Positions 2,106-62,301 are shown, counted from the first letter of the stretch. The stretch is DNA of 64,000 bases from a virus (IMGVR_UViG_2671180879_000003:3799-67798), one strand, 5' to 3'. The notes: generated from the sequence alone by a model not told the origin. Program-made: numbers and translations.

Positions 2106-2273
2106 AATAAAATCCTCCTAAAATTTATATTTTTATATTTAAAAGGCAATAAAAAAAGACTTCAATGAGTCTATAATTCTATTGCCTTTTATTAAACTTA
2201 ATCCAAAATTATTTTTAATTTAAAAATAATTTATATAGAATTTTGTAAACATTATTTTTACATTTTATATAAA

Positions 2274-2498
2274 TTATTTATTATCTTTTAAACCCTTACT
2301 AGAGGGGTCTACAAATATACCAACTAATGCTGCTATAACAGCTGCAACAGCAACTGGATTAGCTAATATGCTTAAAAAAGCTTCTACTAACAAGTTCCAA
2401 TTTGTTAAAGTTTTAAAATCAATTCCAGCTGATGAAAATATAACTCCACCTAAACCTAACCAAAAATATGGATTTTTTAATCTACTTTTCATATACAA
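2274..2498 (-). CDS. Holin (phiLC3-like)
   Basis: RLKNPYFW...DPSSKGLKD, two hydrophobic segments, next to endolysin. Confidence 0.85.
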   Translation of the reverse strand: MYMKSRLKNPYFWLGLGGVIFSSAGIDFKTLTNWNLLVEAFLSILANPVAVAAVIAALVGIFVDPSSKGLKDNK

Positions 2499-2781
2499 TC
2501 TCTCCTTTTGTTTTTTCTATTGTATCTATTCTGTGATGTGCTAATTTGGTGCTTTCTTCAACTTTTATAAGCCTCTCTATAACATTACTTATTTTTGTAT
2601 CTTGAGCTTTTATATCAAGCCTTATATCATCAACACCTTTACTTATATAATCTAACTTTGTAGCAACTACTGTTTTTTGTGATGCATCATCTTCTATATC
2701 ATGAGCAGTCTTTTTTTGATAACTCATATACCCAATTATTGCACCTACAATTGTACATATAACGGTAACTTCTATATTCAT
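2482..2781 (-). CDS. Lysis-module membrane/coiled-coil protein (XhlA-like)
   Basis: N-terminal TM, C-terminal EESTKxAHHRID; near-identical to 36122..36418. Confidence 0.7.
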   Translation of the reverse strand: MNIEVTVICTIVGAIIGYMSYQKKTAHDIEDDASQKTVVATKLDYISKGVDDIRLDIKAQDTKISNVIERLIKVEESTKLAHHRIDTIEKTKGEIVYEK

Positions 2782-2789
2782 ATTCCCTC

Positions 2790-5700
2790 CTAAGCAATTT
2801 TACTTTTAAGTTCTTTTACCTGTTCTTCTAATAATTCATTTTTCTCTATAACTTTTTGCAAAGCTGTTGCTAACACATTTGTGTAACTCATATCATCATA
2901 TCCTAATTGTCCAAACTTATTTTTTGTTTGAATAATTCTTCCGATTTCAAATTCGTATAAGTCTTGGGCTATTAAACCTATTCTCATTCTAGTAGTTGCA
3001 TCAATGTTAATGTTGTATCTAAAAGTTGCAGTTTTTAAATGATCTCTTACAAACTCATAACAACTATTTTTAAAACTAGAATTAATATATCTTATATCAT
3101 ATTTTAAATTTCTATCAGAACCTATTACAGCATTGTATATACTTAATCCTTGCATATCTATGTTATTTTCAATATAAAGACTAGTTGTTGCTGAATTTGT
3201 ATTTCTTGCTATTCTATCAACCATCAATCTAGGACCATCTATTGTTACTCCTCCATTTATGTGGAGTTGAGGGTCCCCATTAAAACTTATTATCCTTTTT
3301 TGAAAGTCTTCATGTGGTCCATGTGAAAAATCTATATAAGCAGGTCCTTGAGTTGGACTTCTTAGTTCAAGTCTAGCGTCAGAACTTGTTCTAACATCTG
3401 GTAAAACCTCTAATCCACCTATAATACTTATTAAGCTTCCATTGTTAGGCAACTGTGCTATACGAGCCGTATAATCATTACTAATACCATTTCTAGAGAA
3501 ATCTATATAACATAAATTGCCTTGATTTGCATTTATCTCTATACCTTTATCTCCATCTCCAGTAAATTGGATAGGGTTTTGCGGTCCAAATACTTTAAGC
3601 CCCCACACATTCAACCAACCTGTAGGATCCATGCTAAAACATTTTAAATTTTGATGATTATATAACTCTATAGCACCGTTACGAATTATAAATTTACCAT
3701 TACTATTTTGAACATTACCAGTTATATTGTTAAATGCCATTTCTACACTTTTAGGGTTTTGAGCTATTATAGATGAAACATCTCCTGCACTTACTTTATT
3801 AACTATTTGATTAGCTTTAAGTGTTATAGAAGCAGTATCTTCTGTTGAGTTAGTCCAATCTAAATTACGCTTAAATAATCCTTTAAGTAGAATTACATCT
3901 TCTATATGAATTAAACTTCCATACTCTTGACTAGCTCCATTGTGCCATAGTGAAAATTTATAGTAAGCTGTACTATTAACTTTAAAGTTAAACCTATATA
4001 CACCCCTGCTTTTTAAATTAATTGATGTATATACAACATTATCGTTCCTATCTTGTATAGTTACTCTAAATCCATTTAAAACATTAGACTGTATTTCTGT
4101 GCAATTAATTTGTATTGTATAATCAACATTTCCTTCTAATGCTACATCTTGACTAAATCTAATTCCCATATTACTTTTATTTACAAATGAAAATCCTTTT
4201 TTTACACTTGAGTCTGTAGTACATGTTCTTATGGATAAATTCCCGTTTGATACGCCCCACCAATCTATATTATTAAATCCGTTTGAGTTATTTAGCATAT
4301 TTAATTTTGAAGATGAAGCAACTAAATCTATTTGATTTAACTGTTGATTTATCTCCGTTTTTATTATAGATGCTGATTCTGTTATTTTCCCATCCACTTC
4401 ATTTTTTTTATAGAATTGAGAACTTACTGTGCTAATTATAGAAGCATCTGTTATTTTTTGTGCTGCTTCTTTTTTCCAAGTTTCTAAAGATATTATTTTA
4501 TCATTTACAGTAGATTGACTAGTTTCTACATTTGATACTCTACTTGTTATATTGCTTAAGTTTGCTTCTATTGAAGCCACTTTACTTTTAGTAGTAGATA
4601 CATTAGTTTCTGTAGAACTTACTCTAGCTTTTATACTATTTAAATCTCTCTCAACAGTATTTACTTTAGTTTCAACATCATCTATTTTACCAGTAGCACT
4701 ATTAATTTGAGTTGTATGCTTTCCTATAGTACTTTTCATACTATCTACAGTATCTACAGTACGGTTATAATCGTCTTTTAATAGTATTGTTTGTCCATCT
4801 TTTACTATCTGAGTATTATTTATAGCAGTGCTGATTTCCCCTTGCATAACTCCTATAGTTGTACTATTACTTTCAGTTTTCTTTTTAGTCTCATCTGTTT
4901 GTGTTTTTAATGAGTTAAACGCTAAATCTAAAGTTTGGTTAACTTCATCTATTTGTACCTTAGAACTTTTTATAGTTGTAGATCCATTGTTTATCTGAGT
5001 TACAACACTATTAATATTTAGCTTATGACCATCTATGTTAGCATTATCAGAAATCATATCATCTCTTATAATTTTCTCTTTTATACCACTAGATTTAAGT
5101 CCAGTAGCATCAAACATTAAATTTCCCTTAGAATCCCAAACATACATAGTATAGTCATTTTTAGCATCTTTACCTATCTGAACTCTAACTCTGTTAGTAT
5201 CTCTAATCTGAATAGTATTATCTGATATTAAAATATTTCCACTATCAGACGTAATTCTAAACTTATTAGTACTAATATCTCCTGCATTTACTTTAGAAAC
5301 ATCTAAACTAGCTATCATAGCATTTTTAATAAATCCATTTGCTATAGTAAGTTTATCTGAAGTTATTCCTCCAGATTGGATGTTTTCACTAGACAAATTA
5401 CCGTTTACAAGTGTTTCAATTTTATCTACATTAGCTTCCAATACTTGTATAGTTGCATTTACAGCTTCTAATTGAGTTATACTAGCTTTATTAGCTTGTA
5501 AATCATTTATTTGTGCTGAATGAGTAACTGTTAAACTATCTATCTTTGCGACATTCGATGTAAGTGTTCCTATAGTACCTTGAACGGCAGTTAATTGTCC
5601 TGTTATATTTACATCGAAAGCTTCTAAGTTTTCTATTTTAGCATTAACAACAGTTAAATCTGTAATCTTAGCAACACTTGCTTCAAAGTCAGATATTTGA

Positions 5701-23612: not shown

Positions 23613-24296
23613 CTATTTTTTTATTGGTTCATTGAAAGAAGGTGGGTTAATATCCATCTTTGTATTATGATTGTTAGGTCCCGGACTAGATAAGTCAAAG
23701 TATAGTTTAGAGTCTTCAGTAACTCCAAAGTCTCTATTTGAACCTGTATCTTTAATCTTATTTAATGCATCTCTAAATAAAGCATTATGAGCTTCTTCTC
23801 TGTTAAGTAAGAAGTCTATTGTTTCTCTTACATATTTATCGTCAATTTGTCTATATAAATATTCATATACAACTTTTGCTCTTTGCTCTGATGCTATATT
23901 TGATAATAGATCTGCAACTAAGTCTCCTGTTACAGTAACATAATCAGCAGTCCAAGGTGCTCCTGAAGAGTTTATTAAAAATGGTGATAATCCACTTAAT
24001 ACATGAGTTTCTATTTCTCCAAAATCAACTGCTTTATAATCAACATCATGTCCATTTAATAAATTTATTGTTTGAGCAACCATTTCCATATGGCTAAGTT
24101 CTTCCGCTGCTATATCTAGAAATAAATCTTTTATCTCTTTATCTTTTATTCTAAAGCTTTGAGATAAATATTGCATTGCTGCTTTTAACTCTCCATTTCC
24201 TCCTCCTAATTGCTCTTGCATTAAAACTGCATATTGAGGATTTGGTCTTTCTACTTTTACTTCTCTTAACAATTTTTTATCATGTTTAAACATCAA
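23613..24296 (-). CDS. Manganese catalase family protein
   Basis: EQLGGGNGELKAAMQY, EELSHMEM, REEAH motifs. Confidence 0.92.
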   Translation of the reverse strand: MMFKHDKKLLREVKVERPNPQYAVLMQEQLGGGNGELKAAMQYLSQSFRIKDKEIKDLFLDIAAEELSHMEMVAQTINLLNGHDVDYKAVDFGEIETHVLSGLSPFLINSSGAPWTADYVTVTGDLVADLLSNIASEQRAKVVYEYLYRQIDDKYVRETIDFLLNREEAHNALFRDALNKIKDTGSNRDFGVTEDSKLYFDLSSPGPNNHNTKMDINPPSFNEPIKK

Positions 24297-27044: not shown

Positions 27045-27275
27045 TTATTCATCCTTATTTCCACCTCTGATCCCCCAAGCACTCATTATTTTATCTGCAC
27101 TTTCTGGAAACCTTAGTTTTCCATTAATCTCTTTACCACATATACATTGTGCCAATGCCATATAATTTGGATATGTTTTATAGTCACTTGCTTTAAAAAA
27201 TGTTTCTTTTACACTGGGTATACTAAGTTCTATTTCAACATACTTTAACTCTGTTGATTTACTCATTCTTATCAC
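27045..27275 (-). CDS. Hypothetical phage protein, paralogue of 56261..56494
   Basis: Shared KTYPNYMALAQCICGKEINGK. Confidence 0.7.
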   Translation of the reverse strand: MIRMSKSTELKYVEIELSIPSVKETFFKASDYKTYPNYMALAQCICGKEINGKLRFPESADKIMSAWGIRGGNKDE

Positions 27276-27804
27276 CCCTTATTTTATACTCAAGTTTATA
27301 TCTCTTTCTAAAAAGCCTTTTAGCTTCTATTGCTTGATTTAAATTACCTCTGCTAGCATTTAAATAGTCACATGCTTTATTAACACTCTCAAACTCTATA
27401 GTCTCATTTTTTAATTTATCTATAACTATCAACGGCTTTCTTTCAACTTCTCTTATAGTTTCTAAAGCTTGTATCCTAAATCTCTTTCTAAACAATCTAT
27501 TGTGCTTTATATAAGTTGTTATATCTGCCCTTCTCATATCTAGAAATTTACAACAATCATCTAATCCATCAAACTCCATTTCTTTCTCTTCTACTTCATC
27601 TACTACCTTAACTTTATAATTATAATTCTGTTTAGGTTTAATCTTTCTATAATGTCCTCCCTTATCATCTTTAGGATCATCAAGTACTATATGTTTAATA
27701 GCTTTTCCTATACTTAAACTTGGATTTAATATGTAAGCTAATAAAGCAAGATAGTTATATGTAAAATCAAAATCACAAGAATTAGAACATTTCACTCTAA
27801 TCAC
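27259..27804 (-). CDS. Protein with two NUMOD1-like HTH repeats, paralogue of 56599..57138
   Basis: FESVNKACDYLNASRGNL-type repeats. Confidence 0.65.
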   Translation of the reverse strand: MIRVKCSNSCDFDFTYNYLALLAYILNPSLSIGKAIKHIVLDDPKDDKGGHYRKIKPKQNYNYKVKVVDEVEEKEMEFDGLDDCCKFLDMRRADITTYIKHNRLFRKRFRIQALETIREVERKPLIVIDKLKNETIEFESVNKACDYLNASRGNLNQAIEAKRLFRKRYKLEYKIRGDKNE

Positions 27805-29625: not shown

Positions 29626-29892
29626 CTAAGCTCCTTGTTTATCGTTATATTCTTTAATCGCTATTTCTTTAGCTTCTTCATAACTCAAACCAGTTTCTTC
29701 TAACTCCTTTGTTCTTATCCATATTGGGTAAGCTATACTCAATGCTTCATCCCCATATTTTTCTCTTTGTCTATCAAGTATCCACTTAGCTTTTCTTCTT
29801 TCTATTTCCTCAATCCAATATGGATCTTCTGGGTAAACTACCTCAACTTTTATTTCTCTGCTTTTTCTTGGTGTCATCGCAACCACCCCCAC
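29626..29892 (-). CDS. Small protein, candidate recombination directionality factor (probable start ATG 29877)
   Basis: GGGGGTGG RBS; SpoIIID/sigE-like promoter; last intact ORF before the recombinase. Confidence 0.6.
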   Translation of the reverse strand: MGVVAMTPRKSREIKVEVVYPEDPYWIEEIERRKAKWILDRQREKYGDEALSIAYPIWIRTKELEETGLSYEEAKEIAIKEYNDKQGA

Positions 29893-29895
29893 TAA

Positions 29896-29925
29896 ATTTT
29901 ATGTTTATTGAAAATTGTCCTATGC
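29896..29925 (-). promoter_or_regulatory. SigE-like promoter overlapping SpoIIID box
   Basis: ATA-N17-CATAAAAT with TAGGACAATT (WWRRACARnY). Confidence 0.65.
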
Positions 29926-30614: not shown

Positions 30615-32207
30615 ATGATTGCTGCAATCTATTCAAGAAAATCAAAATTTACTGGAAAAGGTGAATCTATAGAAAACCAAATACAACTTTGCATGGACTA
30701 TGCTAAGAACCTAGGAGTTAATGAATTTTTAGTATACGAAGATGAAGGTTTTTCTGGTAAATCTATGGATAGACCAAAGTTTAAAGAAATGCTTAAAGAT
30801 GCTAAAGATAAAAAGTTTGATTATTTAATATGTTATAGATTAGATAGAATATCCCGTAATGTTTCTGACTTCTCTACTCTTATAGAAGATCTAAATAAGC
30901 TTAATATATCTTTTGTATCAATTAAAGAACAATTTGATACTAGTACTCCTATGGGACGTGCTATGATGTATATATCATCTGTATTTGCTCAGTTAGAGAG
31001 AGAAACTATAGCTGAACGTGTTAGAGATAATATGTATGAGTTAGCTAGAACAGGAAGATGGCTAGGAGGTATGCCTCCATATGGTTTTATTAGTACTCAA
31101 ATTAACTACTATGATGAAAATATGAACCAAAGAAAAATGTATAAACTTAAAGTTGATGAAGACACAATAGAAATTGTTAAATTAATATTTGATAAATATT
31201 TAGAGCTTAGATCACTTTCAAAGCTTTATAAATATATGTATGAGAATGGAATTAAAGGAACTCGTGGAGGTAACCTTGATCCTAGTGCCTTATCTTTAAT
31301 CCTAAAAAATCCATCATATGTTAAAGCTGATAAAAGTGTAGTTGATTATCTAAGAAAGTCTAATATAGATGTTATGGGAGATATAGATAATATACATGGT
31401 ATCCTAACTTATGCTAAAAATACAGATAGTCCTATAGCTGCTGTTGCTAAACATAAAGGTGTCATAGATTCGGATAAATGGATTGAAGCCCAAAGGTTAC
31501 TTAATGCAAATAAAGCTAAAGCTCCTAGGGCTGGAACTGGGGCTAAGGCATTATTATCAGGTCTTTTAAAATGTTCTAAGTGTGGCTCTAATATGAGAAT
31601 TACTTATAAAAACTCTAAAAGTGGTACTATCTATTATTACATATGTGGAACAAAGAAATCTTTAGGCGTATCAGCTTGTGATTGTAGAAATATCAGATCT
31701 GATAAGGCTGAATCTAAAGTTATAGATGAATTAAAAAATAAAAGTATTAAATCTATAATGTCAAGTTATAAAGATAGCAAGTTAGAAAACTCTAAGAATA
31801 GTAAAAATATAAAAACTGAGATAAACTCAATAAATAATCAAATTAAAGAAAAGGAAACATACATTGATAATTTAGTTATGCAATTAGCCAAGGTTACCGA
31901 AAGCTCTGCATCTACTTTTATAATCAATAAATTAGAATCTTTAAATAATGACTTATCTAATTTAAAATCACAATTAGAATCTTTAAATACTATGTCTATG
32001 GAAAATAAGCAAGTTGATATTAATATAAATATGCTTATAGATAATTTAAATAAATTCAATAAAGAAATTGATACCTCTGATATCAATAAGAAGAGACTGT
32101 TACTATCTACAGTAGTAGATTATATGACATGGGACTCTGATACAGACACAATAAAGGTAAACCTAATAGGTATCAATCCAAGCAATACTATAGCTTCGGA
32201 TAAATAG
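30615..32207 (+). CDS. Large serine recombinase of element 1
   Basis: YSRKS, DEGFSG, RLDRISR, zinc ribbon CSKC, coiled coil; intact 530 aa. Confidence 0.95.
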   Translation: MIAAIYSRKSKFTGKGESIENQIQLCMDYAKNLGVNEFLVYEDEGFSGKSMDRPKFKEMLKDAKDKKFDYLICYRLDRISRNVSDFSTLIEDLNKLNISFVSIKEQFDTSTPMGRAMMYISSVFAQLERETIAERVRDNMYELARTGRWLGGMPPYGFISTQINYYDENMNQRKMYKLKVDEDTIEIVKLIFDKYLELRSLSKLYKYMYENGIKGTRGGNLDPSALSLILKNPSYVKADKSVVDYLRKSNIDVMGDIDNIHGILTYAKNTDSPIAAVAKHKGVIDSDKWIEAQRLLNANKAKAPRAGTGAKALLSGLLKCSKCGSNMRITYKNSKSGTIYYYICGTKKSLGVSACDCRNIRSDKAESKVIDELKNKSIKSIMSSYKDSKLENSKNSKNIKTEINSINNQIKEKETYIDNLVMQLAKVTESSASTFIINKLESLNNDLSNLKSQLESLNTMSMENKQVDININMLIDNLNKFNKEIDTSDINKKRLLLSTVVDYMTWDSDTDTIKVNLIGINPSNTIASDK

Positions 32208-32219
32208 GAACTTTAATAC

Positions 32220-32413
32220 ATTTATCTGAAGCTATTTCTATGTCAGATAAGGTTGCAGTTTTATCCAAACGCCCTGCATCTATAAAAAATATCTATAACA
32301 TAAATTTAAAAATATCAGAAACTAGAACTCCTATAATATCAAGAAGTGCTGAAAATTTTAAAGACTATTTTAATATCTTGTGGAAGGAGATTGATTCTAG
32401 TGAAACAAAATAA
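32220..32413 (+). pseudogene. ytlC: 3' fragment of NitT/TauT ABC ATP-binding gene split by element 1
   Basis: LSEAISMSDKVAVLSKRPASIK...FKDYFNILWKEI, the sequence following the H-loop VTHD; overlaps permease start. Confidence 0.88.
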
Positions 32414-34254: not shown

Positions 34255-34812
34255 GTGATTTTTTTGCTAAAAAAATTAATAACATTAATAACTTTAATTA
34301 CTAGCCTATCTTTGCTTCTCATTGGATGTACTCCTAAATCTCAAAGTATTAAATCTAAAAATTTAAATAAGCTAACTGTTGCAGAGGTAACCCATTCAGT
34401 ATTTTATGCTCCACAATATGCAGCTATAACTCAAGGTTTTTTTGAGGAAGAGGGCATTGAGTTAGACCTTATAAATACTCAGGGAGCAGATAAAACAATG
34501 GCTGCACTTCTTTCTGGAGAAGCAGATATAGGACTTATGGGACCAGAAGCATCTATTTATGTATATAATAAAGGAAATTCAAATTATGCAGTAAATTTTG
34601 CTCAATTAACTCAAAAAGATGGAAGCTTTTTAGTTGCTCGTGAAAATACTGATAGTTTTTCTTTTGAGGATTTAAAAGGTAAAGAGGTTTTAGGTGGTAG
34701 AAAAGGTGGGGTTCCTGAAATGACATTAGAGTATGTTATGAAAAAAAATGGTCTAACTATAGGAACTGATACTCAAAACGGTAAAGTAAACGTTAGAACC
34801 GATATTCAATAA
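34255..34812 (+). pseudogene. ytlA: 5' fragment of NitT/TauT substrate-binding lipoprotein split by element 2
   Basis: Lipobox LIGC, AEVTHSVFYAPQY, NFAQLTQKDGSFL; stops abruptly at VRTDIQ (185 aa, about half length) beside phage DNA. Confidence 0.88.
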
Positions 34813-34867
34813 TCAGTTTTATTATAACAGTTAATTTTTAGAATAGTATTTTAGAAATATTAAGATA

Positions 34868-35003: not shown

Positions 35004-35780
35004 TTATACTAATTCAAGATACTTAGAGCTAACATATCCTAGACCCTTATTACCGTTAAACCCTTCTATACTTACCCATCCATTTAAACAATACTGTAAA
35101 TTCACTATATCTCCATATTTAACTTGTCCTATTACCTCATACTCTGTACCTCTATCCCATCTAACATTTAAAACATCTGCAATTACTCTAGCTTTTCTTC
35201 CTGAGTAATCTCCATTTGTAAATCCTTCGTCTACAATTCCAGTTTCTTTCCATTCAACTGAATTAAATTTACAAATTCCTTTTGCTATAGCTTTAGCAAA
35301 TTTATCTTTATTGTTCATTATTAAATTATAGTCTTCCTCATTAGTTATGAATCCTAACTCAACTAAACAAGCATCCATCTTAGTCTCTCTAACTACGTGT
35401 AGGTTACCTTCCTTTACACCTCTATTTTTAGTGTAAAGACCTTCTTGTATTAACTCTGAGTGTATAATGTCTGCTAAAGCTCTATATGCAAATTTATAGC
35501 AATAAGTTTCTACCCCTTGAGCACTTGGATTGTCAGAGCTGTTACAGTGTATTGATACAAATGAGTTTACCCCTAATTTATTAGCTTCATTAGTTCTATC
35601 ATTTAACGTCACAAATACATCTGTAGTTCGAGTATTTAAATTTTCTATATTTTGATTTTTTAAGTACTTAGCTACTCTATTAGATACATCTAATACTATA
35701 TCCTTTTCTAAGCATCCATGTACTCCTGGTGCTCCAGAATCATATCCTCCATGTCCTGGATCTGTCATATTTTTTTTCAT
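35004..35780 (-). CDS. Endolysin, Amidase_3 plus SH3b
   Basis: DPGHGG, SIHCN, LVELGFITN; close paralogue of 1323..2105. Confidence 0.93.
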   Translation of the reverse strand: MKKNMTDPGHGGYDSGAPGVHGCLEKDIVLDVSNRVAKYLKNQNIENLNTRTTDVFVTLNDRTNEANKLGVNSFVSIHCNSSDNPSAQGVETYCYKFAYRALADIIHSELIQEGLYTKNRGVKEGNLHVVRETKMDACLVELGFITNEEDYNLIMNNKDKFAKAIAKGICKFNSVEWKETGIVDEGFTNGDYSGRKARVIADVLNVRWDRGTEYEVIGQVKYGDIVNLQYCLNGWVSIEGFNGNKGLGYVSSKYLELV

Positions 35781-53020: not shown

Positions 53021-54235
53021 TTATTTAAAAACTCTTAATCCACTACCTTTGCTCTCTGTATAAATTGCATATCTAAGTGCATCCAATACATCATCCCACA
53101 GCTTAATAGGTTCTCCTGTTGTTTTATTCCAAGCATACATAAAAATTTCTTTTTTAAATAAATCAGTATGTTCCTTTACTACCTTTAATTTATTAGTCTT
53201 AAATCCTTTTGCTACTACTTCAATTCCACTTAATACTGATTTATCAGCATTTTTAGCTCTTAGACCTTCCTTTTTAAATCTTGCTACATGTTCAGGTCTT
53301 GCACTATCACAATAAAAAATTATATTTCCATATTTACTTTTTATTGTTTTAGCTACATCTACCCAATAATCAATTTCTTCATACTGTCTTGCATACTCTC
53401 TTAATAAATATAAATTTTCATTATCATCTTTTCCTATAACAACTATAGAACCATGATGTTCATATCCCCAGTCAACACCTGCAAAAAATTTTACAAAATT
53501 TATATTTTTTAAATTACTTTCACTTATGTAATGAATATCTTTTCTAAAGTCTCTATAAACAATTCCTTCTGCAGATACCCATAATCCCTTTATATCTCTA
53601 TCATAAAACATTCCAGATGGAGTTGATGCTTTAATATTGTTTCTATATCTCTCACTTAAAAATGTATTCTCATCTAACTCATAGTGATAAGCTTGTATTA
53701 TTTTTCCATCTGCTTTATCTATAAAGTTTGATTTTAGCCAGTGTTCTGGTTGATCTGGATTTGTATCTATTAATATTCGTGCTCCTTCACCAGAACATCT
53801 TGCTTTAATTTCATTAAAAACTTCTTCATTTGCCATAGTTCCTTCGTTTATATATGCTCCAAATGAAGTCATCCCTCTTATTCTTCCTAAATCATTTTTT
53901 TTTGAATGTCCAAAACAGCATACTTGAACTCCAAATAAAATAAATCTATTGTGTTTGTCAAACTTAAACTCAATATCATATTTATTTGTAAGTTCATTTA
54001 AAACATTTCTTTGAACCGATCCTAAATCAGCACCTGCTAAAATATATTGAGGTAATGTAATATTTAATTCATCAGCTATCTTTCTAACTCTTCTTAATTC
54101 ATATATAAATAAATCATTATCTAAAATAGTTTTTCCTGTTCTTTTTGCACCATGATTAATTAACATAAAAAAATCGTTGGTCATTGCAAAGTTCATTACT
54201 TCTAATTGTTTTTTATGATATAAATCATTTAACAT
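53021..54235 (-). CDS. Terminase large subunit (PBSX family)
   Basis: GAKRTGKT, DTNPD, GVDWG, DDVLDALRY. Confidence 0.92.
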   Translation of the reverse strand: MLNDLYHKKQLEVMNFAMTNDFFMLINHGAKRTGKTILDNDLFIYELRRVRKIADELNITLPQYILAGADLGSVQRNVLNELTNKYDIEFKFDKHNRFILFGVQVCCFGHSKKNDLGRIRGMTSFGAYINEGTMANEEVFNEIKARCSGEGARILIDTNPDQPEHWLKSNFIDKADGKIIQAYHYELDENTFLSERYRNNIKASTPSGMFYDRDIKGLWVSAEGIVYRDFRKDIHYISESNLKNINFVKFFAGVDWGYEHHGSIVVIGKDDNENLYLLREYARQYEEIDYWVDVAKTIKSKYGNIIFYCDSARPEHVARFKKEGLRAKNADKSVLSGIEVVAKGFKTNKLKVVKEHTDLFKKEIFMYAWNKTTGEPIKLWDDVLDALRYAIYTESKGSGLRVFK

Positions 54236-54920
54236 TTATATGTTCCTCTAATTTCGTAAAATATTGATCTATTTTTTCTTCTCTATTTTTTTCATTATTA
54301 ACTATTCTAGACTTTAAGACTTCTATTCTAGCTTTTTGTTCTTCAGTAGCTAAATTTAAATTAGAATTAATCATATTGTCATATTGCTTAATTAAACTCC
54401 TTAATTCGCTCATTGCTCTACTTTGAGCATTAAGAAAAGAAGCTTGTCTATCCCATGCAAATTGAAGTTCATACTCTATCTTTTGAGATAACTCACTTTG
54501 TTCCTCTTTTTTTACTTCTCTTATTATTTCATCTTTTTCAGCAACATACATAATTTTTTGAGCTCTTATTATAGCCGCATACTGTATTACAATTTGTTCC
54601 CAAAGTATATCTATCTGTTTTTTTTCAACTATAGAATCCATTAACTCTAAGGTTTCATCTGGTAAGTATTTAGAAAAAAAGCCAAACTTTTCAGCATTTT
54701 TATTTCCTTTTGGAGCTCCATGTCCAACTGCATTTTTATTATTAAGAGGAGCCCCTCCAGTATTCTTAGGTATTCCCTTTCGCCGTTTTTCTTCAGCCCA
54801 TTTATATCTACTTATCCATGATTTCAGTGTATTTATATTAATTCCATGATTTTTACATATTTGTTTTTGTTTTATTCCATTTAGATAATCTATTTTAGCT
54901 AAATCCTTTAAATCTGCCAC
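54225..54920 (-). CDS. Terminase small subunit
   Basis: N-terminal HTH, GAPKGNKNAEKFGFFSKYLP. Confidence 0.88.
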   Translation of the reverse strand: MADLKDLAKIDYLNGIKQKQICKNHGININTLKSWISRYKWAEEKRRKGIPKNTGGAPLNNKNAVGHGAPKGNKNAEKFGFFSKYLPDETLELMDSIVEKKQIDILWEQIVIQYAAIIRAQKIMYVAEKDEIIREVKKEEQSELSQKIEYELQFAWDRQASFLNAQSRAMSELRSLIKQYDNMINSNLNLATEEQKARIEVLKSRIVNNEKNREEKIDQYFTKLEEHINVK

Positions 54921-54946
54921 ATCACCACCTCAATTCTTTGTTAAAT

Positions 54947-54986
54947 AAAAAAGCCACTAATCTTTTTAAGATTTAGTGACTTTTTT
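54947..54986 (-). terminator. Terminator in element 2 late leader
   Basis: aaaaaagccactaa...ttagtgactttttt. Confidence 0.65.
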
Positions 54987-55034
54987 ATTACTATGCATTT
55001 AAACATATGAAAACTTGTTGCAAAATAACAGTTT

Positions 55035-55085
55035 TAGTTTATACTCCATACCGCTATAGAGTTCTCAAAGAGCCGTAAAGTTATA
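55035..55085 (-). ncRNA. Conserved boxA-like plus hairpin motif, copy 2
   Basis: GGCTCTTTGAGAACT then ACTCTATA-GCGG-TATGGAGT. Confidence 0.55.
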
Positions 55086-55090
55086 ATATT

Positions 55091-55164
55091 TGATGAGAAT
55101 ATATGGTTTCGAACCATATTCTACTAATAAATTTAGCTGTTTTCCCATATTAAACTATATCCTC
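55091..55164 (-). ncRNA. tRNA-like element, copy 2
   Basis: Acceptor GAGGATA/TATTCTC, D stem GTTT/AAAC, T arm TATGG-TTCGAAA-CCATA; anticodon arm has a 5-nt loop; no encoded CCA. Confidence 0.65.
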
Positions 55165-55258
55165 ATATATAGATTAAATACAAATCTATCTTAATTATTT
55201 TATATAAAATAATGTAATCGATAGTAAGTAGTTAATATTGTATAATTTCTTTATACTA

Positions 55259-55313
55259 ATATAATATCATACTTACTATCAATTTAATTCTTCACTTTTT
55301 CCGAAGTTTTTCT
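55259..55313 (-). promoter_or_regulatory. Probable activator-dependent late promoter
   Basis: Directly after activator gene: AGAAAAACTTCGGAAAAAGT then extended -10 TGATATTAT. Confidence 0.65.
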
Positions 55314-55344
55314 AAAAATATATACTCATTCAAGATTAAGATTT

Positions 55345-55830
55345 TTATCTACTATGATTTTCAAAATTATAAAGTGGAAAAATTATAGGTATAGATTTTT
55401 TTATCATATTTTCTCTTATGGAGTAATACGTATCTTTTCCTACATTCATTTTTAATCCATATACTTGCCAATTTTTTATATTTTGTATGTATCTAATATT
55501 AAACATTTCATTTTCTTCTTTATTAAAGTTATCTATAGCTCTCTCAACTCGTTTTATACTTACCTCTTTTTCATACTTTAATTGTTCTAATAACTGTAAC
55601 TTCTTCTGTTTTTGAATAATTTCTATTTCAACAGGTGAATTTATATTATCACTTTTTTGAACTTTTTCTAAATACTCAGTTGACCTAAAACCATTGTAAT
55701 CAAACTTTATAAATTCTATCTCTTCTTCTATACATATAACTTCTCTTTTTAAATCTTTAAATTGATAAAATAGACTTTCAACTTTATTAAATAAGTTATG
55801 TTTTTTTGATACTTTTACTGTAGTACTCAT
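55345..55830 (-). CDS. RinA/ArpU-family late activator
   Basis: Position before terS, C-terminal HTH, similar layout to 25736..26239. Confidence 0.75.
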   Translation of the reverse strand: MSTTVKVSKKHNLFNKVESLFYQFKDLKREVICIEEEIEFIKFDYNGFRSTEYLEKVQKSDNINSPVEIEIIQKQKKLQLLEQLKYEKEVSIKRVERAIDNFNKEENEMFNIRYIQNIKNWQVYGLKMNVGKDTYYSIRENMIKKSIPIIFPLYNFENHSR

Positions 55831-55846
55831 AATATCACCTCTATTA

Positions 55847-56251
55847 TTATTCTAATTCTTCGATTATAACTTCAACTCTAGGATTATTATCAAAGTATTT
55901 ATTTGCAATTAATTCAACAATTTGTGTATCATCATTATAAGCAACTTTATTTAAAGCATCACATATTATTTTTACAACATTATCTATGTCTGGCTTAATA
56001 TTAAAAGGTCTTACTTTACCACTTAATTTTGATTCTTTTAGCTTTTTATTATCACTTTTAGCTATTTTATAATAGCAATTTATAGTTAGTTTTATAGCTT
56101 CAGAAAAATAAGGTTTATTTTCTGCTCTATATAATAGTTTTATATAATTTTCATAAATAATAGTTTCTTCTGGTGTTCTTATTTTTCCATAACTTAACCT
56201 TGGTCTATCCTTTCCTTTTGGTTTTCCATTTATAATAAATTTAGCTTTCAT
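55847..56251 (-). CDS. rusA: RusA Holliday junction resolvase
   Basis: KPDIDNVVKIICDALN...DDTQIV. Confidence 0.92.
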   Translation of the reverse strand: MKAKFIINGKPKGKDRPRLSYGKIRTPEETIIYENYIKLLYRAENKPYFSEAIKLTINCYYKIAKSDNKKLKESKLSGKVRPFNIKPDIDNVVKIICDALNKVAYNDDTQIVELIANKYFDNNPRVEVIIEELE

Positions 56252-56260
56252 ACTAATCTC

Positions 56261-56494
56261 CTAATAATTTTTCGAATTAAAATCATCTTCATTTGATTCT
56301 CCACCTTTAATGCCCCATACACTCATTACCTTATCAGCACTTTGTGGATAATTTATTTTCCCATTTATCTCTTTACCACATATACACTGAGCTAAAGCCA
56401 TATAATTTGGATATGTTTTTGAGTCACTAGGCTTAAAAAATGTTTTTTGTACACTGGGTATGTACGCTTCTTTTTTCATAAATCTGCCCTCCAT
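56261..56494 (-). CDS. Hypothetical phage protein
   Basis: Paralogue of 27045..27275. Confidence 0.7.
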   Translation of the reverse strand: MEGRFMKKEAYIPSVQKTFFKPSDSKTYPNYMALAQCICGKEINGKINYPQSADKVMSVWGIKGGESNEDDFNSKNY

Positions 56495-56598
56495 AAATTT
56501 TTAAATTAACACTTTATTTTAATTTATAAACTTGTTGTTTGTTTTTTATAAATATTTAATTTAATAATATTGTTTTTTCATATTTATAAGTTATAATT

Positions 56599-57138
56599 TT
56601 AACAATTAAATTTCTTATTATCTTTAATTTCTATTTTATATCTTTGCCTAAATAACCTTTTAGCTTCTATAGCTTGTTTTAAATTTCCTCGGCTAGCATT
56701 TAAGTACTCACATGCTTTATTAATGCTTTTTAGATCAATAATTTCATTTTTCAAAGTATCTGTAATTCTAACTTCTTTACATTTTATCCTTTCAATATTC
56801 TCTGGTACTTCAATCATATATCGTTTTTTGAATTTAATTTTATGTTTTATATATATAGTTATATCTGATCTTCTAATGTTTAAAAATTTACAACAATCAT
56901 TTAATGTATTAAACTCATAAACCTTATTTTCAACCTCATCTGTAACCCTCGCTCTATGATTATAACTTTTTTTAGAGCTTTTAATATTCCTATATGCTCC
57001 ACCCTCTCCATATCTAGCATCCTCTAAAATTATATGTTTAATTGCTTTTCCAATACTTAATTTAGGGTTTAATATACAAGCTAGTAATGCCATATAGTTT
57101 TCTGTAAAGTCAAAATCATATGTATTGCTATATTTCAT
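56599..57138 (-). CDS. NUMOD1-like repeat protein
   Basis: Paralogue of 27259..27804. Confidence 0.65.
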   Translation of the reverse strand: MKYSNTYDFDFTENYMALLACILNPKLSIGKAIKHIILEDARYGEGGAYRNIKSSKKSYNHRARVTDEVENKVYEFNTLNDCCKFLNIRRSDITIYIKHKIKFKKRYMIEVPENIERIKCKEVRITDTLKNEIIDLKSINKACEYLNASRGNLKQAIEAKRLFRQRYKIEIKDNKKFNC

Positions 57139-57171
57139 ATCTGATAGCTTCTCCTTTTCTGCTTTTCATCT

Positions 57172-57975
57172 TTACTTAGCTTCATAAATTCTATAATTTA
57201 ATTTTTTACCTTTCATTATAACTGTATAATTTTTGCATTTTTCATATAACCTAGACCCTATAGCTTCATCAATTTCTAATAAGTTACTCAATGATTTTTC
57301 AGTAGTAATTATCATGGGAAGGTTTTTGAAGTATCTATAATCAATTATTTCATACATTATGTTTATATCAGATTCAGTAATTCTTCCCTTAAATAAATCA
57401 TCTATAAATAAAATCTGAGCTTCCTTATATTTGATTATTTCTCTTTGATAATTTTCTTCATCAGTTATACACTGCTTAATTTTAGTTATGATGTTTCTAT
57501 AAGGCATATATATAACGCCTTTACCATCATCTAATAGTATATTTGATATAGCCATAGCTAAATGTGTTTTACCACTTCCAACTTGTCCCATTAGCATTAT
57601 TGAATTTTGCTTCTTATTAATAATAGATTTAAATTCTTTAGAGTAAGTCTTTGATGTTACATACGCTTCCATTGCCTCAATACTACTTTCATACTTAAAA
57701 TTTTCAAATCTCATTTTTCTAAATTCTTCACTTATCCCTGATAGTTTTAACTTATTCTCTGCTATTCTTAAGTTTCTACATTTACATGGTGCAAAACTTC
57801 CATCATCTAGCTCTATAAAGAGCATATCTCTACATTTAGAACACTTATATTCATTTTTTGCTAAGCTCTTTGCACTTTTCAAGCAATCTAATTTTTCTTG
57901 ATTCTTCACTTTCTCTACTATCATTTGTACTCTTTTTTGTAGATTTATCTTTTCTTGTTCTAACATATAGATCAT
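57172..57975 (-). CDS. DnaC/IstB-like helicase loader ATPase
   Basis: GQVGSGKTHL, LFIDDL, N-terminal Cys cluster. Confidence 0.9.
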   Translation of the reverse strand: MIYMLEQEKINLQKRVQMIVEKVKNQEKLDCLKSAKSLAKNEYKCSKCRDMLFIELDDGSFAPCKCRNLRIAENKLKLSGISEEFRKMRFENFKYESSIEAMEAYVTSKTYSKEFKSIINKKQNSIMLMGQVGSGKTHLAMAISNILLDDGKGVIYMPYRNIITKIKQCITDEENYQREIIKYKEAQILFIDDLFKGRITESDINIMYEIIDYRYFKNLPMIITTEKSLSNLLEIDEAIGSRLYEKCKNYTVIMKGKKLNYRIYEAK

Positions 57976-58744
57976 CTCCTTTATACAATTTGGCTTCTAT
58001 ATTTTTTTCTATATTTGATCTGTATAGTTTTAATTTATCCACCGTAGTAATTCCAGCTTCTAACCACTTATTTATAATACCTTCTATGTAGTATATAGAT
58101 TTTATATTTGATTTTATAGATATTCTCATTGCTTCTATAAATAACTCATTTTGTATTTTTTTTGATAATTTAACTATCCTATCTTGTTCAATTGAATTTA
58201 ATATATAATTACTAGCTATTTCTCTTTTATAAAAGTTTATTATATCTTCTATAGTAGTCTCTTTTGTGTTATCCAAATTATTTAAACTTATATTTTTAAT
58301 ATTGTTATTATTAAAGCTTTTATTATTAGGGGGGTTAATTTGATTACTATCAAGTTGACTACTATCAAATTGACCATTGTCAATTTGACTAGTATCATAT
58401 TCTTCTCTTGCAACTTTTATTTCTCTAGTATCCATTATTAATTCATATAAGTTGCTGTCATTTCTATTACCTTTTCGTCTCTTATAAACACGTATATATC
58501 CATGTTCTTTTAATTGTTTTATATTTTTATTAAATCTTCTCTCCGTTGTTGCTAGTTCAGCAAGCATTAATTCTTTTCCCGGAAAACAACTCCCATTACT
58601 TCCTGCAAAACTAGCTAAATATGCATATATAGCTTTTGCTTCTAAGCTTAACAATTTATCTCTAGTTATCTTTTTAGGAATTAAACCATATCCTTCATTT
58701 AAAATACTGGTACTTTGAAAATATGGTTTATCTTTCACTTCCAC
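57851..58744 (-). CDS. Replication initiator (HTH plus DnaD domain)
   Basis: LSLEAKAIYAYL...CFPG; YIEGIINKWLEAGITT. Confidence 0.88.
   Translation of the reverse strand: MEVKDKPYFQSTSILNEGYGLIPKKITRDKLLSLEAKAIYAYLASFAGSNGSCFPGKELMLAELATTERRFNKNIKQLKEHGYIRVYKRRKGNRNDSNLYELIMDTREIKVAREEYDTSQIDNGQFDSSQLDSNQINPPNNKSFNNNNIKNISLNNLDNTKETTIEDIINFYKREIASNYILNSIEQDRIVKLSKKIQNELFIEAMRISIKSNIKSIYYIEGIINKWLEAGITTVDKLKLYRSNIEKNIEAKLYKGDDLYVRTRKDKSTKKSTNDSRESEESRKIRLLEKCKELSKK
58341..58400. repeat. Four tandem 15-nt iteron-like repeats (probable origin)
   Basis: tgattactatcaagt/tgactactatcaaat/tgaccattgtcaatt/tgactagtatcatat next to an AT-rich tract. Confidence 0.65.
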
Positions 58745-58782
58745 TATATTTCACCTTCTTTTGTATTAAATAGCCATTATCA

Positions 58783-59607
58783 TTATTGAGTAATATTTAT
58801 TTCTTCACTTTCATCTTTTAATTCAAATCCAACCTCAATAGGTTCTGTTTCATCTTCGATTAAACTCATATCTTCATCTATTTTAGATTTAACAGTTTCA
58901 TCTGAGTTAACTGCCTTTTGAATTTCTATACTTAGTGGAGCGTATTTTAAAAGTTGTTTTATAACAGTTTTCTTTGCCATTGCATTAAAATCAGTTTGCC
59001 AAGGTCCATTTTTAAAAGTCTTACTTTTACTTCTAGCATGATTTAACACTTCTTCTTTGGTCATGAATATAAAACTATATCCACCTGAAGTTAAATGGTA
59101 AACTGAGTAATAACCTATAACTTCTCCTCTTTCCCCAGTTATTACAGGCTCATGTATAATATCTTGATTTAGTCCATACTTTACTTCAAACTTATCATTT
59201 TCTCTAACCTCATGTGCATATAAACTCTTTATTTGTCCACTTCTTAATGCCAACTCCAGTAATCCCTTATATCCAATTTGAAATTGAACTTTATTACCAT
59301 ATGGAATTAGATAGGCTTGTCCTAGTGGTGTATTTGGTTCTAAACCTAGTTGAGCTGAATCCATCATAGCTGCTAAAAAACTCATAGGATCACAACTTAA
59401 AAATTTAGAATTACTTCCAAATGCTGTTAAAACTAGTCTTTGAAATCTCTCGCTTGATATATGTTCTGGTAAGGCTTTCTTTATTTGTCCTGACATTTGT
59501 CTCATTAATTGCTCCATAGCTTTATTTGGGCTAGATTTTTTGACATTTATTGTTTCTGATGCTTTATTTGCTAGTTTATTTTTTAAATCTGTCATTTTAT
59601 ATACCAT
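58783..59607 (-). CDS. recT: RecT recombinase
   Basis: AQLGLEPNTPLGQAYLIPY, FQIGYKG, MAKKTVIK. Confidence 0.93.
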   Translation of the reverse strand: MVYKMTDLKNKLANKASETINVKKSSPNKAMEQLMRQMSGQIKKALPEHISSERFQRLVLTAFGSNSKFLSCDPMSFLAAMMDSAQLGLEPNTPLGQAYLIPYGNKVQFQIGYKGLLELALRSGQIKSLYAHEVRENDKFEVKYGLNQDIIHEPVITGERGEVIGYYSVYHLTSGGYSFIFMTKEEVLNHARSKSKTFKNGPWQTDFNAMAKKTVIKQLLKYAPLSIEIQKAVNSDETVKSKIDEDMSLIEDETEPIEVGFELKDESEEINITQ

Positions 59608-59613
59608 CCTTCT

Positions 59614-60600
59614 TTATTTTTCTTTTCCAATCTTAAAAATTCTTGAAGTGCTAATTTTCATAAATTGTTCTGCTATATCTGGCATCTCAGCTTTTAATTT
59701 TTTACTATCTAAAGTTTTTCTAGAAGAATTTTTCCATGTTATTTTTCTAGTTCCTATTCTAGCTACTTCAAATTCTTCCATATGAGCTTGTATTTCTTGT
59801 TCTATTAATTTTTTCTCCTTCTCTAATTGTTTTATATCTGATAATATGTCATCATATCTTAAAAGCTTTTCTTTCCCATTTTCTAAAAAATGCAATTCTA
59901 TTTCTTCATTATTAGAAAATTTATATTTCTCTTTTAAATACTCACTGTATGCATCTGATCCATCTGGTAAAGGTACAATATCTTTTAATATGTTTTCTTC
60001 CCAAAACCTTTTTTCTATTTGCATAAGATAGTTTATCGACTCTTCATCCCTAACTAATTTATGAAATAAGAATTCACTGTTCCCAATTAGCACAGCTATA
60101 TAGCAATGTGTAGCACCTGTTATAGCCATATAATGTAAGCATTGAATTTCATAATGTATTGGAATTCCTTCTTGCCATTCTTTTAGTGAATATGAACCCG
60201 TTGTTTTACACTCTAAAAAAGCTTTTTCTCCTAAAATAGCTCTATCTATATTTCCTAGCGCAAAAGGATATTTATCATTTTTAAGTATGCCATTAACATT
60301 TCTTACCTTTAATCCAGTTTTTTCTGTAAATAATTCAGCAACCAAGCCCTCTAATCTATTTCCTAATTCAAGTCTAAAAGATTTAACTTCTTTTGGACTA
60401 TCCGCTTTTTTTTCCATATAAAGTTGTATTGAACTCTTCCATGGATTAACGCCTATAACTGCAGATGCATCACTACCTCCTATTCCCGATTGTCTGTACT
60501 TTAGCCATTTATCCTTTTTTATATCTTTTGTATCAACTACTATGTATGAATCTAAATATTTTCTTTGCCTTTCACATCTATTTCTATTCATAAAATCCAC
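59614..60600 (-). CDS. yqaJ: YqaJ-family exonuclease
   Basis: GIGGSDAS, NIDR, LECKT, YEIQCLHYM. Confidence 0.9.
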   Translation of the reverse strand: MDFMNRNRCERQRKYLDSYIVVDTKDIKKDKWLKYRQSGIGGSDASAVIGVNPWKSSIQLYMEKKADSPKEVKSFRLELGNRLEGLVAELFTEKTGLKVRNVNGILKNDKYPFALGNIDRAILGEKAFLECKTTGSYSLKEWQEGIPIHYEIQCLHYMAITGATHCYIAVLIGNSEFLFHKLVRDEESINYLMQIEKRFWEENILKDIVPLPDGSDAYSEYLKEKYKFSNNEEIELHFLENGKEKLLRYDDILSDIKQLEKEKKLIEQEIQAHMEEFEVARIGTRKITWKNSSRKTLDSKKLKAEMPDIAEQFMKISTSRIFKIGKEK

Positions 60601-60626
60601 CCTTCTATTGGACTATTATATTTAAT

Positions 60627-60654
60627 AATTTATTTAAAATTAAGCTTGTCCTAA
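60627..60654 (-). promoter_or_regulatory. SpoIIID box with sigE-like -10 before yqaJ
   Basis: TAGGACAAGC, then AATAAATT at the same spacing as the other two sites. Confidence 0.5.
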
Positions 60655-60670
60655 TTTGTATGTATAGCTA

Positions 60671-60850
60671 CTATTTTTTAGTAGCTAACTTACCTTCTTT
60701 GTATAACCTTTTTGCTATTCTATAATTAATCTTTGCTATTCTGTCAAGGATTGCCTGAATTTCTTCATCTGTTTGCTTTCTTCCAAGCCTCACTTCTGGA
60801 GAAATTATTTCTATTATCGCATTTTCAGTTTCTACCTTATAAATATCCAT
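60671..60850 (-). CDS. 59-aa protein, candidate recombination directionality factor
   Basis: MDIYKVETENAIIEIISPEVRLGRKQTDEEIQAILDRIAKINYRIAKRL (manual translation); G-rich RBS; directly upstream of yqaJ. Confidence 0.65.
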   Translation of the reverse strand: MDIYKVETENAIIEIISPEVRLGRKQTDEEIQAILDRIAKINYRIAKRLYKEGKLATKK

Positions 60851-60871
60851 AATGTAATCCCCCCTTTATAA

Positions 60872-60901
60872 TTTATATGAATTATAAAAATTGTCCTATT
60901 C
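60872..60901 (-). promoter_or_regulatory. SigE-like promoter overlapping SpoIIID box
   Basis: ATA-N17-CATATAAA with TAGGACAATT. Confidence 0.62.
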
Positions 60902-60940
60902 AACACTATTTCTATGTAAATATGAAAAAGATTAATATAT

Positions 60941-61141
60941 CTATATAGTTTTTTTAAATAGCATTTTTAAATCACACTCTGGAAAAAATTGTTCTTGTAT
61001 TTTAAGAGCTTCATCATAAGTAAATGAATACTTACCTGATAGTTTTAAATTTAAAGTATTGTAAGTTTTGCCTATGTATTTGGCTATAGATGCTTTTTTT
61101 ATTTTTTTCCTAGCTATCTCAGCCTCTAAATTAAGATACAT
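60941..61141 (-). CDS. Cro-like HTH protein
   Basis: NLEAEIARKKI...FTYDEA; divergent from repressor. Confidence 0.85.
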   Translation of the reverse strand: MYLNLEAEIARKKIKKASIAKYIGKTYNTLNLKLSGKYSFTYDEALKIQEQFFPECDLKMLFKKTI

Positions 61142-61159
61142 TTGATGCTTCCTCCTTTG

Positions 61160-61284
61160 AACGTTATTTCGTTTGTAATTTAATGTTATACTAAATTTCG
61201 TTTAAAATCAACATTTTTTTTATTTTTTTATAAAATTTAAATATTTTTAAATGAAATTTCGTTTATTATGATTGAATTTACGTT
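61160..61284. promoter_or_regulatory. Four 14-bp operators, consensus AACGAAATTTCGTT
   Basis: Imperfect palindromes at 61160, 61189, 61250 and 61271 between cro and cI. Confidence 0.7.
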
Positions 61285-61325
61285 TATAAAATGCTAATAT
61301 ATACAATAGAAAGGAGGTTTTTATA

Positions 61326-61808
61326 TTGAATAAAACTAATAAATTAAAACAACTAATTTTAAATAAATATGGTAGTATAAGAGAATTTTCTAGAATTGTA
61401 CAAATACCTAGCACCACATTAACCAGTGCACTAGATAAAGGTATTGGCGGAATGGCTGTAGACCGAGTTATTAAAATTTGCGATATATTAAATATAGATA
61501 TAAAAACATTTGATCCCTTAGATCAAGATAATGAAATTTTTTCTAAAAAAGATGATTTAGATAAAAATAAAGTTAATAGTTTTAAATCTGTTAAGGAACA
61601 AAATTTATTAAGCAATTTCTATAAACTTAACGATTTAGGAAAAGATGAAGCAATTAAAAGGGTTTATGAATTAACTCAACTAAAAAACTATACTGAAAAA
61701 AACACTAGCTTAAATATAAAAACTATAGCTGCCCACAATGACCATTTAACCGAGTATGGTGAAATGGATAGAATATTAGAAGATATAAAAGATATGAATA
61801 ATTGGTAA
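61326..61808 (+). CDS. CI/ImmR-like repressor
   Basis: N-terminal XRE HTH, C-terminal TIAAH motif. Confidence 0.85.
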   Translation: MNKTNKLKQLILNKYGSIREFSRIVQIPSTTLTSALDKGIGGMAVDRVIKICDILNIDIKTFDPLDQDNEIFSKKDDLDKNKVNSFKSVKEQNLLSNFYKLNDLGKDEAIKRVYELTQLKNYTEKNTSLNIKTIAAHNDHLTEYGEMDRILEDIKDMNNW

Positions 61809-61815
61809 AGTTTAG

Positions 61816-62301
61816 GTGATTTATATGAATATATATGAAGAATTACAACAAGAAGCACATGAAAATAATATAATAGTAAAAGAAGTTTCACTTAAGTCAA
61901 GCTCTGATGGTCTATATTATGATGGAAAAATTGCTATAAATAAAACTAGATTGACTACTAATAAAGAAAAGGCATGCGTTTTAGCAGAAGAGCTTGCCCA
62001 TCATTATAAAAGTTATGGAAATATATTAGATACAGATGATATGTCAAATGCTAAACAAGAATATAAAGCTAGACTATTTTCTTATGATAAGTTAATCGGT
62101 TTAAATGGAATTATAAATGCTTGGAAAAATTATTGCAGAACTAAAGAAGAAATAGCTGACTATTTAAATGTCACTATTCCTTTTTTGGATGAAGCTATAG
62201 AATGCTATAAAAAAAAATACGACCCTTCTGTTCAGATAGATAACTATGCAATATCATTTTCTCCTAGTTTAATTATAACCGAACTTATTGATATATTTTA
62301 A
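61816..62301 (+). CDS. ImmA/IrrE-family metallopeptidase
   Basis: CVLAEELAHH...KQEYKAR. Confidence 0.85.
   Translation: MIYMNIYEELQQEAHENNIIVKEVSLKSSSDGLYYDGKIAINKTRLTTNKEKACVLAEELAHHYKSYGNILDTDDMSNAKQEYKARLFSYDKLIGLNGIINAWKNYCRTKEEIADYLNVTIPFLDEAIECYKKKYDPSVQIDNYAISFSPSLIITELIDIF

Follow-up and report, generated by a model that had tools for sequence, protein, structure and literature searches.

A conserved small early gene as a candidate recombination directionality factor of a large serine recombinase prophage

Organization of the locus

The DNA analysed here, referred to as the window, is a stretch of 64,000 nucleotides (nt) from a virus (IMGVR_UViG_2671180879_000003:3799-67798). It is the terminal part (64 kb) of an IMG/VR provirus record of 67.8 kb and has a G+C content of about 27%. 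The window contains two tandem prophages, elements 1 and 2, each of which ends with an outward-pointing gene for a large serine recombinase (LSR). This study concerns a small open reading frame (ORF) of element 2, designated ORF59, which is a candidate recombination directionality factor (RDF) of the element-2 recombinase, LSR2, and is preceded by a promoter-like motif of sporulation type. The features of the region are as follows.

60671..60850, minus strand: ORF59, candidate RDF
60899-60871, minus strand: promoter-like motif ATAGGACAATTTTTATAATTCATATAAAT, read from the sequence, with its pattern kept in 29/29 related loci
60644-60653, minus strand: second SpoIIID-like box TAGGACAAGC, just downstream of ORF59
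60941..61141, minus strand: cro-like gene, the first in the early lytic operon (phrog_4583; phrog_3 repressor-type helix-turn-helix)
61174..61285, minus strand: divergent promoter/operator region, with three copies of AAACGAAAT and one variant
61326..61808, plus strand: CI/ImmR-like repressor (HTH_26)
61816..62301, plus strand: ImmA-like metalloprotease (Peptidase_M78; phrog_87)
62462..64000, plus strand: LSR2 (Resolvase, Recombinase and Zn_ribbon_recom domains; phrog_95 integrase)
30615-32207: LSR1, the large serine recombinase of element 1

About 512 of the approximately 515 residues of LSR2 are present, as the record end cuts the gene about 3 codons before its stop. Homologs of LSR2 are 503–507 residues long, and its closest relatives, found in Paraclostridium genomes, share 69–77% identity. 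Within the window, AAACGAAAT is confined to the repressor–cro intergenic region, where it occurs three times, and these repeats are probably operators. No terminator-like site occurs between cro and ORF59, which makes lytic read-through into ORF59 plausible.

ORF59 is a conserved gene

ORF59 is a real, conserved gene. It has a strong Shine-Dalgarno sequence (GGGGGG) and is under purifying selection, with dN/dS values of 0.07–0.37 in 15 of 15 pairs. A word-indexed search identified 13 close clusters, which are annotated as 'hypothetical protein' at NCBI wherever they are named, and an exhaustive profile search of 1.84 billion proteins identified 12 remote representative clusters with E ≤0.001. 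The remote members are 49–90 residues long and share the common core V.I.SPE..LGRKMTEEE. The AlphaFold model of ORF59 is composed of a β-hairpin followed by a long helix (pLDDT 86.6). Contigs from two RNA libraries span the gene (X1, 60588-60905; X2, 59312-61075); these contigs show no start, strand or expression and may derive from DNA. A search of the open-access literature found no report of the ORF59 protein family or of its promoter motif.

ORF59 diverges together with the recombinase

A member of the ORF59 family was found at 29 loci: 25 on viral contigs, three in genomes and one in a named phage. A recombinase of the LSR2 clade, with at least 400 aligned residues, lies about 1.5–7.6 kb from the ORF59 homolog in 25 of the 29 loci. 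The other four comprise three loci with too little upstream DNA because of contig ends (L076, L090 and L091) and one with a truncated recombinase (L089). The last is a decayed relative, in which positions 1770-3310 contain an ORF59-family gene followed by a 285-residue recombinase fragment devoid of the catalytic domain.

The identities of ORF59 (45–100%) and of the recombinase (50–100%) rise and fall together, with a Spearman rho of 0.93 (n=25), or 0.89 (n=21) once near-identical loci are dropped. The neighboring genes behave differently. YqaJ stays constant at 75–78% in all 11 non-identical loci that possess it, and yqaJ and recT remain near 75–82% while ORF59 and the recombinase diverge. 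At locus L088, for example, yqaJ and recT are 78% and 75% identical to their element-2 counterparts, yet ORF59 and the recombinase are 51% and 52% identical. Flanking and immunity genes vary from locus to locus. ORF59 displays traits of the RDF class, as it shares an element with LSR2, is retained together with this recombinase and co-diverges with it.

The only ORF59-like gene among 50,697 phage records is in Terrisporobacter phage TVCOM_ph1 (hhalign 96%), and the same phage provides the best LSR2 match in the phage records, at 50%. TVCOM_ph1 is an active prophage that is spontaneously released (excerpt of PMC11253131).

The linkage might alternatively reflect common descent of a lysogeny-and-early module, with ORF59 being a small early protein whose role lies outside recombination, such as taking over the host or disturbing replication or sporulation. 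A precedent is YqaH, a small ORF of the yqaF-N operon at the same position (yqaG-I) in the skin element of Bacillus subtilis, between a cro-like gene and yqaJ, which binds DnaA and Spo0A (excerpt of bioRxiv 10.1101/2020.11.18.388090). Other genes intervene between ORF59 and the recombinase, which are 1.6–7.6 kb apart. However, ORF59 follows the divergence of the recombinase far more closely than do yqaJ, recT or immA. YqaH also differs from ORF59 in binding DnaA and Spo0A, in its predicted two-helix structure and in having no recombinase linkage.

A promoter-like motif precedes ORF59

The motif upstream of ORF59 is built from three parts, all on the minus strand.

60899-60897: ATA
60896-60891: GGACAA
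60879-60871: CATATAAAT

Transcription is predicted from the sequence to start near 60865, leaving a leader of about 14 nt. The pattern ATAGGACAA-N11-CATA is present upstream of the family member in all 29 loci. ATA and CATA are invariant and held at a fixed 17-nt spacing (ATA-N17-CATA), while the 11 bases between the conserved blocks vary.

The arrangement ATA-N17-CATATAAAT agrees with σE promoters, which in C. difficile consist of a −35 ATA and a −10 element of CATAT(A/T)AT type separated by 16–18 bp (excerpt of PMC3789822). The presumed hosts offer a comparable example, as ATA-N16-CATATATAT precedes spoIIID in three Paraclostridium genomes. The hosts encode SpoIIID, and the sequence TAGGACAAT agrees with the C. 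difficile SpoIIID consensus, KRTAACARK, at 7 of its 9 positions. The GGACAA box presumably also resembles the SpoIIID site of B. subtilis. A second SpoIIID-like box, TAGGACAAGC, follows ORF59 closely; the homolog of TVCOM_ph1 has a similar box behind it, and GGACAAGG follows the homolog in loci L004 and L006.

The preliminary description of this DNA had stated that ORF59 has the same promoter geometry as in element 1, and this is confirmed. The window contains two copies of ATAGGACAATTTT-N7-CATA and no more, at 60876-60899 and 29900-29923. Each lies on the minus strand, a short way upstream of a small ORF; 0.27 occurrences would be expected when up to one mismatch is allowed.

Three other readings of the motif were tried and rejected. 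A σ70 promoter would use TTGxAT and TAtAAT-like hexamers with 20 nt between them, and locus L003 lacks the TTG. A σK promoter would place its AC just 13 nt from CATA, which does not fit the spacing given in the excerpt of PMC3789822. As for a target of the late activator, no AGGACAA occurs upstream of terS.

The motif marks other small ORFs beside recombinases

The second copy of the motif in the window belongs to the following gene.

29629-29877, minus strand: 83-residue ORF of element 1, with the motif at 29900-29923

The 83-residue protein has no similarity to ORF59 by BLASTP. The motif and LSR1 are both kept with this ORF in 18 of 18 viral loci, at variable distance, which suggests that it is likely the RDF of LSR1.

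A scan of viral contigs for ATAGGACAA-N11-CATAT returned at least 112 stretches, 80 of which were examined. Among the matches listed, a Shine-Dalgarno sequence and a start codon lie 8–50 nt after the motif in 21 of the 80, and the ORFs that follow are nearly all 44–119 residues long and belong to different families. One record was tested for each of ten ORF families, after three ORF59-family loci, seven duplicates and the 116-residue ORF of L110 had been set aside. A large serine recombinase (PF07508) lies 0.8–6.7 kb from the motif in 9/10 of these records among the matches listed, versus 0/10 motif-only controls (Fisher p=1.2e-4). The nine recombinases are 21–46% identical to one another. The small ORFs of at least nine families (44–119 residues; L100, L105, L115, L117, L128, L135, L158, L162 and L176) are candidate RDFs on this sequence evidence.

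Across 105 genomes of Bacillaceae, the motif and its control are about equally frequent (23 vs 20). At three of 22 Bacillaceae places among the matches listed, the motif is followed by an ORF of 44–54 residues and then directly by a large serine recombinase, which is the skr-spoIVCA arrangement of skin. Four Bacillaceae genomes (L222, L223, L232 and L233) carry the motif 19 nt upstream of a conserved 318-residue gene, presumably whiA.

The recurrence of one motif at unrelated small ORFs beside very different recombinases, together with the three Bacillaceae loci in which the small ORF lies directly upstream of the recombinase, also speaks against a function of ORF59 outside recombination, which we consider unlikely.

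Insertion sites of the two prophages

Element 2 interrupts a gene for an ABC transporter binding protein of the SsuA family, the left part of which lies within the window.

34255..34812, plus strand: 5′ part of the split SsuA-family substrate-binding-protein gene (SsuA_fam profile positions 19-128 of 290)
near 34795-34815: attL of element 2, from the junction reading

In P. dentum, P. tenue and P. bifermentans, the 3′ part of the gene (profile positions 146-289; in L006) follows directly after the recombinase gene. The sigK gene is not interrupted. Element 1 splits an ATPase gene, whose 3′ remnant at 32210-32413 corresponds to the end of a 250-residue ABC ATPase that is intact in related genomes. 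Both prophages sit in different genes of a single ssuBCA-like ABC transporter operon. The left end of element 1 was not reached within the left 3.8 kb of the record.

Several genes appear to be common to the two prophages, judged by similar translations and shared domains. They include a 76/77-residue ORF, a NUMOD-like protein of about 180 residues and Amidase_3/SH3 endolysins; related segments are 27045-27804 and 56261-57138, and 1323-2105 and 35004-35780. Element 1 also contains a manganese-catalase gene on the minus strand at 23613-24296 (Mn_catalase, E=2.7e-58). We take this family to include the spore-coat protein CotJC, and the gene may represent sporulation-related cargo.

Comparison with the skin element

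The early and packaging genes of element 2 lie beyond ORF59 on the minus strand.

53021..60600, minus strand: early and packaging block
59614-60600, minus strand: YqaJ exonuclease
58783-59607, minus strand: RecT
57851-58744, minus strand: DnaD-like protein
57172-57975, minus strand: DnaC-like protein
55847-56251, minus strand: RusA
55345-55830, minus strand: activator (phrog_36)
55092-55165, minus strand: prophage-borne tRNA-Lys (UUU), between the late activator and terS
54225-54920, minus strand: terS
53021-54235, minus strand: terL

Beyond terL, the same strand encodes an SPP1-type portal and then a contractile tail, whose proteins include XkdN-like (TAC) and YQBQ-like ones. The order immA, repressor, cro, small ORF, yqaJ, recT, initiator, dnaC, rusA, activator, terS, terL and tail, which the preliminary description had given as that of skin, is borne out by domain and PHROG matches. 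Element 2 combines PBSX-like structural genes with a yqaJ-N-like early module, and its genes belong to families found in PBSX and skin; the resemblance at the level of modules is thus real. This gene order in the early region is common among phages of Firmicutes. The skin recombinase lies at the end opposite sknR. In element 2, by comparison, the recombinase adjoins the immunity genes, and the insertion site is an ssuA-like gene instead of sigK; to this extent the likeness to skin fails.

The same description had taken yqaI for the RDF gene of skin and had placed ORF59 in the equivalent position. According to the excerpt of PMC6957869, the skin RDF is instead Skr, encoded by a 64-residue ORF directly upstream of spoIVCA that overlaps spoIVCA by 101 nt, and the RDF position of skin adjoins spoIVCA and not yqaI. 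No plus-strand ORF of at least 20 residues lies between immA and the start of LSR2, so a Skr-like arrangement is absent before LSR2. The replication, packaging and tail modules of the skin and PBSX families would suit a skin-type developmental element whose RDF could be recognized by its equivalence to yqaI. The identity and location of Skr, the absence of a Skr-like ORF, the insertion into an ssuA-like gene and the wide occurrence of this gene order make that explanation very improbable. Of the proposal that ORF59 is an RDF with both lytic and developmental expression, the reasoning from skin is therefore lost, while the co-variation with the recombinase and the conserved σE-like promoter remain in its favor.

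Comparison with known sporulation-linked RDFs

Four characterized RDFs, namely SprB, CD1234, Skr and GirX, are all small and all expressed in sporulation. SprB (58 residues), the partner of the integrase SprA in the B. subtilis phage SPβ, is produced from a σE/K promoter, with a start site 20 nt before the ATG, and by read-through of the lytic operon (excerpt of PMC4191935). ORF59 resembles SprB in size, in belonging with a large serine integrase, and in the combination of a lytic operon with a putative mother-cell promoter close to the start codon; SPβ is likewise an active prophage. The RDF of SPβ uses strands and helices (excerpt of PMC12286644), and the predicted model of ORF59 similarly combines a hairpin with a helix. 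However, the gene split by SPβ is spsM, a sporulation gene, and that split by element 2 codes for an ABC binding protein. The two promoters also differ in sequence, and ORF59 has no similarity to the SprB-like protein of the SPβ-type phage Goe12.

CD1234 (72 residues), the RDF of the CD1231 recombinase in the skin element of Clostridioides difficile, depends on σE and SpoIIID and has a start site 14 nt before the ATG (PMC5025042). The two systems come from the same bacterial family. CD1234 is small and without database relatives, and has a σE promoter with a SpoIIID box and a 14-nt leader; the candidate ORF59 is comparable, with a predicted σE-type promoter, a SpoIIID-like box and a predicted leader of about 14 nt. 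They differ in that skinCd is a defective element in sigK and in the position of the SpoIIID box, which in CD1234 is outside the spacer.

Skr, like the proposed ORF59 product, is a small RDF under σE control, and skin shares PBSX-like structural genes and yqaJ-N-like early genes with element 2. In contrast to skr, which overlaps its recombinase gene, ORF59 is part of the early operon, with 1.6 kb separating it from the recombinase gene. GirX of the B. cereus gin element (42 residues, no motif), the RDF partnering GirC, is a further very small RDF and is expressed in mid-sporulation (PMC5595907), but gin is not a prophage and interrupts gerE.

Proposed mechanism and its assessment

We propose that ORF59 is the cognate RDF of LSR2, with expression driven by the lytic operon as well as by a promoter of sporulation type. 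On the sequence evidence, the probability of this is put at roughly 0.58. The ORF59 protein, with its predicted β-hairpin and long helix, would bind LSR2 at the junction of the zinc-ribbon domain and the coiled coil, like other RDFs. The complex would then recombine attL with attR, excising the prophage and rejoining the ssuA-like gene. RDFs as a class are needed for this reaction and suppress recombination of attP with attB. The protein would be supplied in two ways. Once the repressor is lost, transcripts begun at the early lytic promoter ahead of cro would read through into ORF59. The gene could also be transcribed from its own promoter, ATA-N17-CATATAAAT, with the GGACAA box beside the −35 element. 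Because this promoter has the geometry of the mother-cell factor σE together with a SpoIIID-like site, excision may also take place in the sporulating mother cell. Binding and excision are inferred, as are the sigma factor involved and the type of cell.

A number of points weigh against this proposal. Binding to the recombinase and excision activity are both predictions. The correlation of ORF59 with the recombinase is drawn from loci that are not phylogenetically independent, as many of them represent one prophage in many strains and they amount to about 10 distinct lineages. In the comparison of 9/10 records with 0/10, the host and lifestyle of the controls were unmatched, and small fragments make up five of these ten controls. 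ORF59 has no family match in Pfam, PHROGs or NCBIfam. A sequence search of the PDB returned nothing beyond chance-level matches to calmodulin and designed coiled coils, and structural searches gave a best E of 3.7 with Foldseek against the PDB and a best Z of 3.5 with a wide VIA-align run, neither of which is meaningful. The hhalign probability for the Goe12 protein, which was taken as SprB from its gene position, is 0.2%. RDFs lack a common fold (excerpt of PMC12286644), so the want of homologs neither supports nor refutes an RDF role.

The remaining points concern the promoter. The bare pattern ATA-N17-CATATAA is at chance level in the AT-rich window (3 found vs 1.67 expected). Three host genomes contain no further copy of the exact extended motif, so it is not a promoter in common use for host sporulation. 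The SpoIIID-like box lies inside the spacer, unlike the box of CD1234, which is near −46 (PMC5025042), and the interrupted ssuA-like gene has no known sporulation role.

These observations on the promoter, along with the departure of GGACAA from the C. difficile SpoIIID consensus and the unremarkable count in the Bacillaceae genomes, would fit an ORF59 that is indeed an RDF, but whose motif is the site of another conserved factor or a promoter for lytic growth, with no developmental excision. Such an explanation has to account for prophages with unrelated repressors and recombinases sharing the motif, which points to a host factor. It must also accommodate the invariance of ATA and CATA at one spacing while the bases between them vary, the same geometry at the host spoIIID promoter, and the sporulation expression of all four characterized RDFs of this kind. 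We regard it as rather improbable. A cognate RDF with dual expression is the reading we prefer.

Implications

For most serine-integrase tools the RDF half is still missing, and finding RDFs currently takes genetics or structure-prediction pulldowns (excerpt of PMC12286644). A promoter signature that flags small ORFs beside unrelated recombinases would provide a cheap search for RDFs. We tentatively suggest, as a possibility short of even odds, that ATAGGACAA-N11-CATA is a general mother-cell cassette of σE and SpoIIID type that marks the RDF genes of diverse LSR prophages in endospore formers. If so, this 24-nt signature could find cognate RDFs from sequence alone.

A sporulation-timed RDF in prophages of a transporter operon would extend developmental excision past sporulation genes. 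It would also prompt the question of how phage or host benefits in the mother cell. Excision of both operon prophages there might rejoin the operon or allow the phage to escape from a terminal cell, or there may be no developmental excision. Should the motif prove to be a general mother-cell cassette, mother-cell excision would be a widespread phage strategy, independent of any sporulation role of the interrupted gene.

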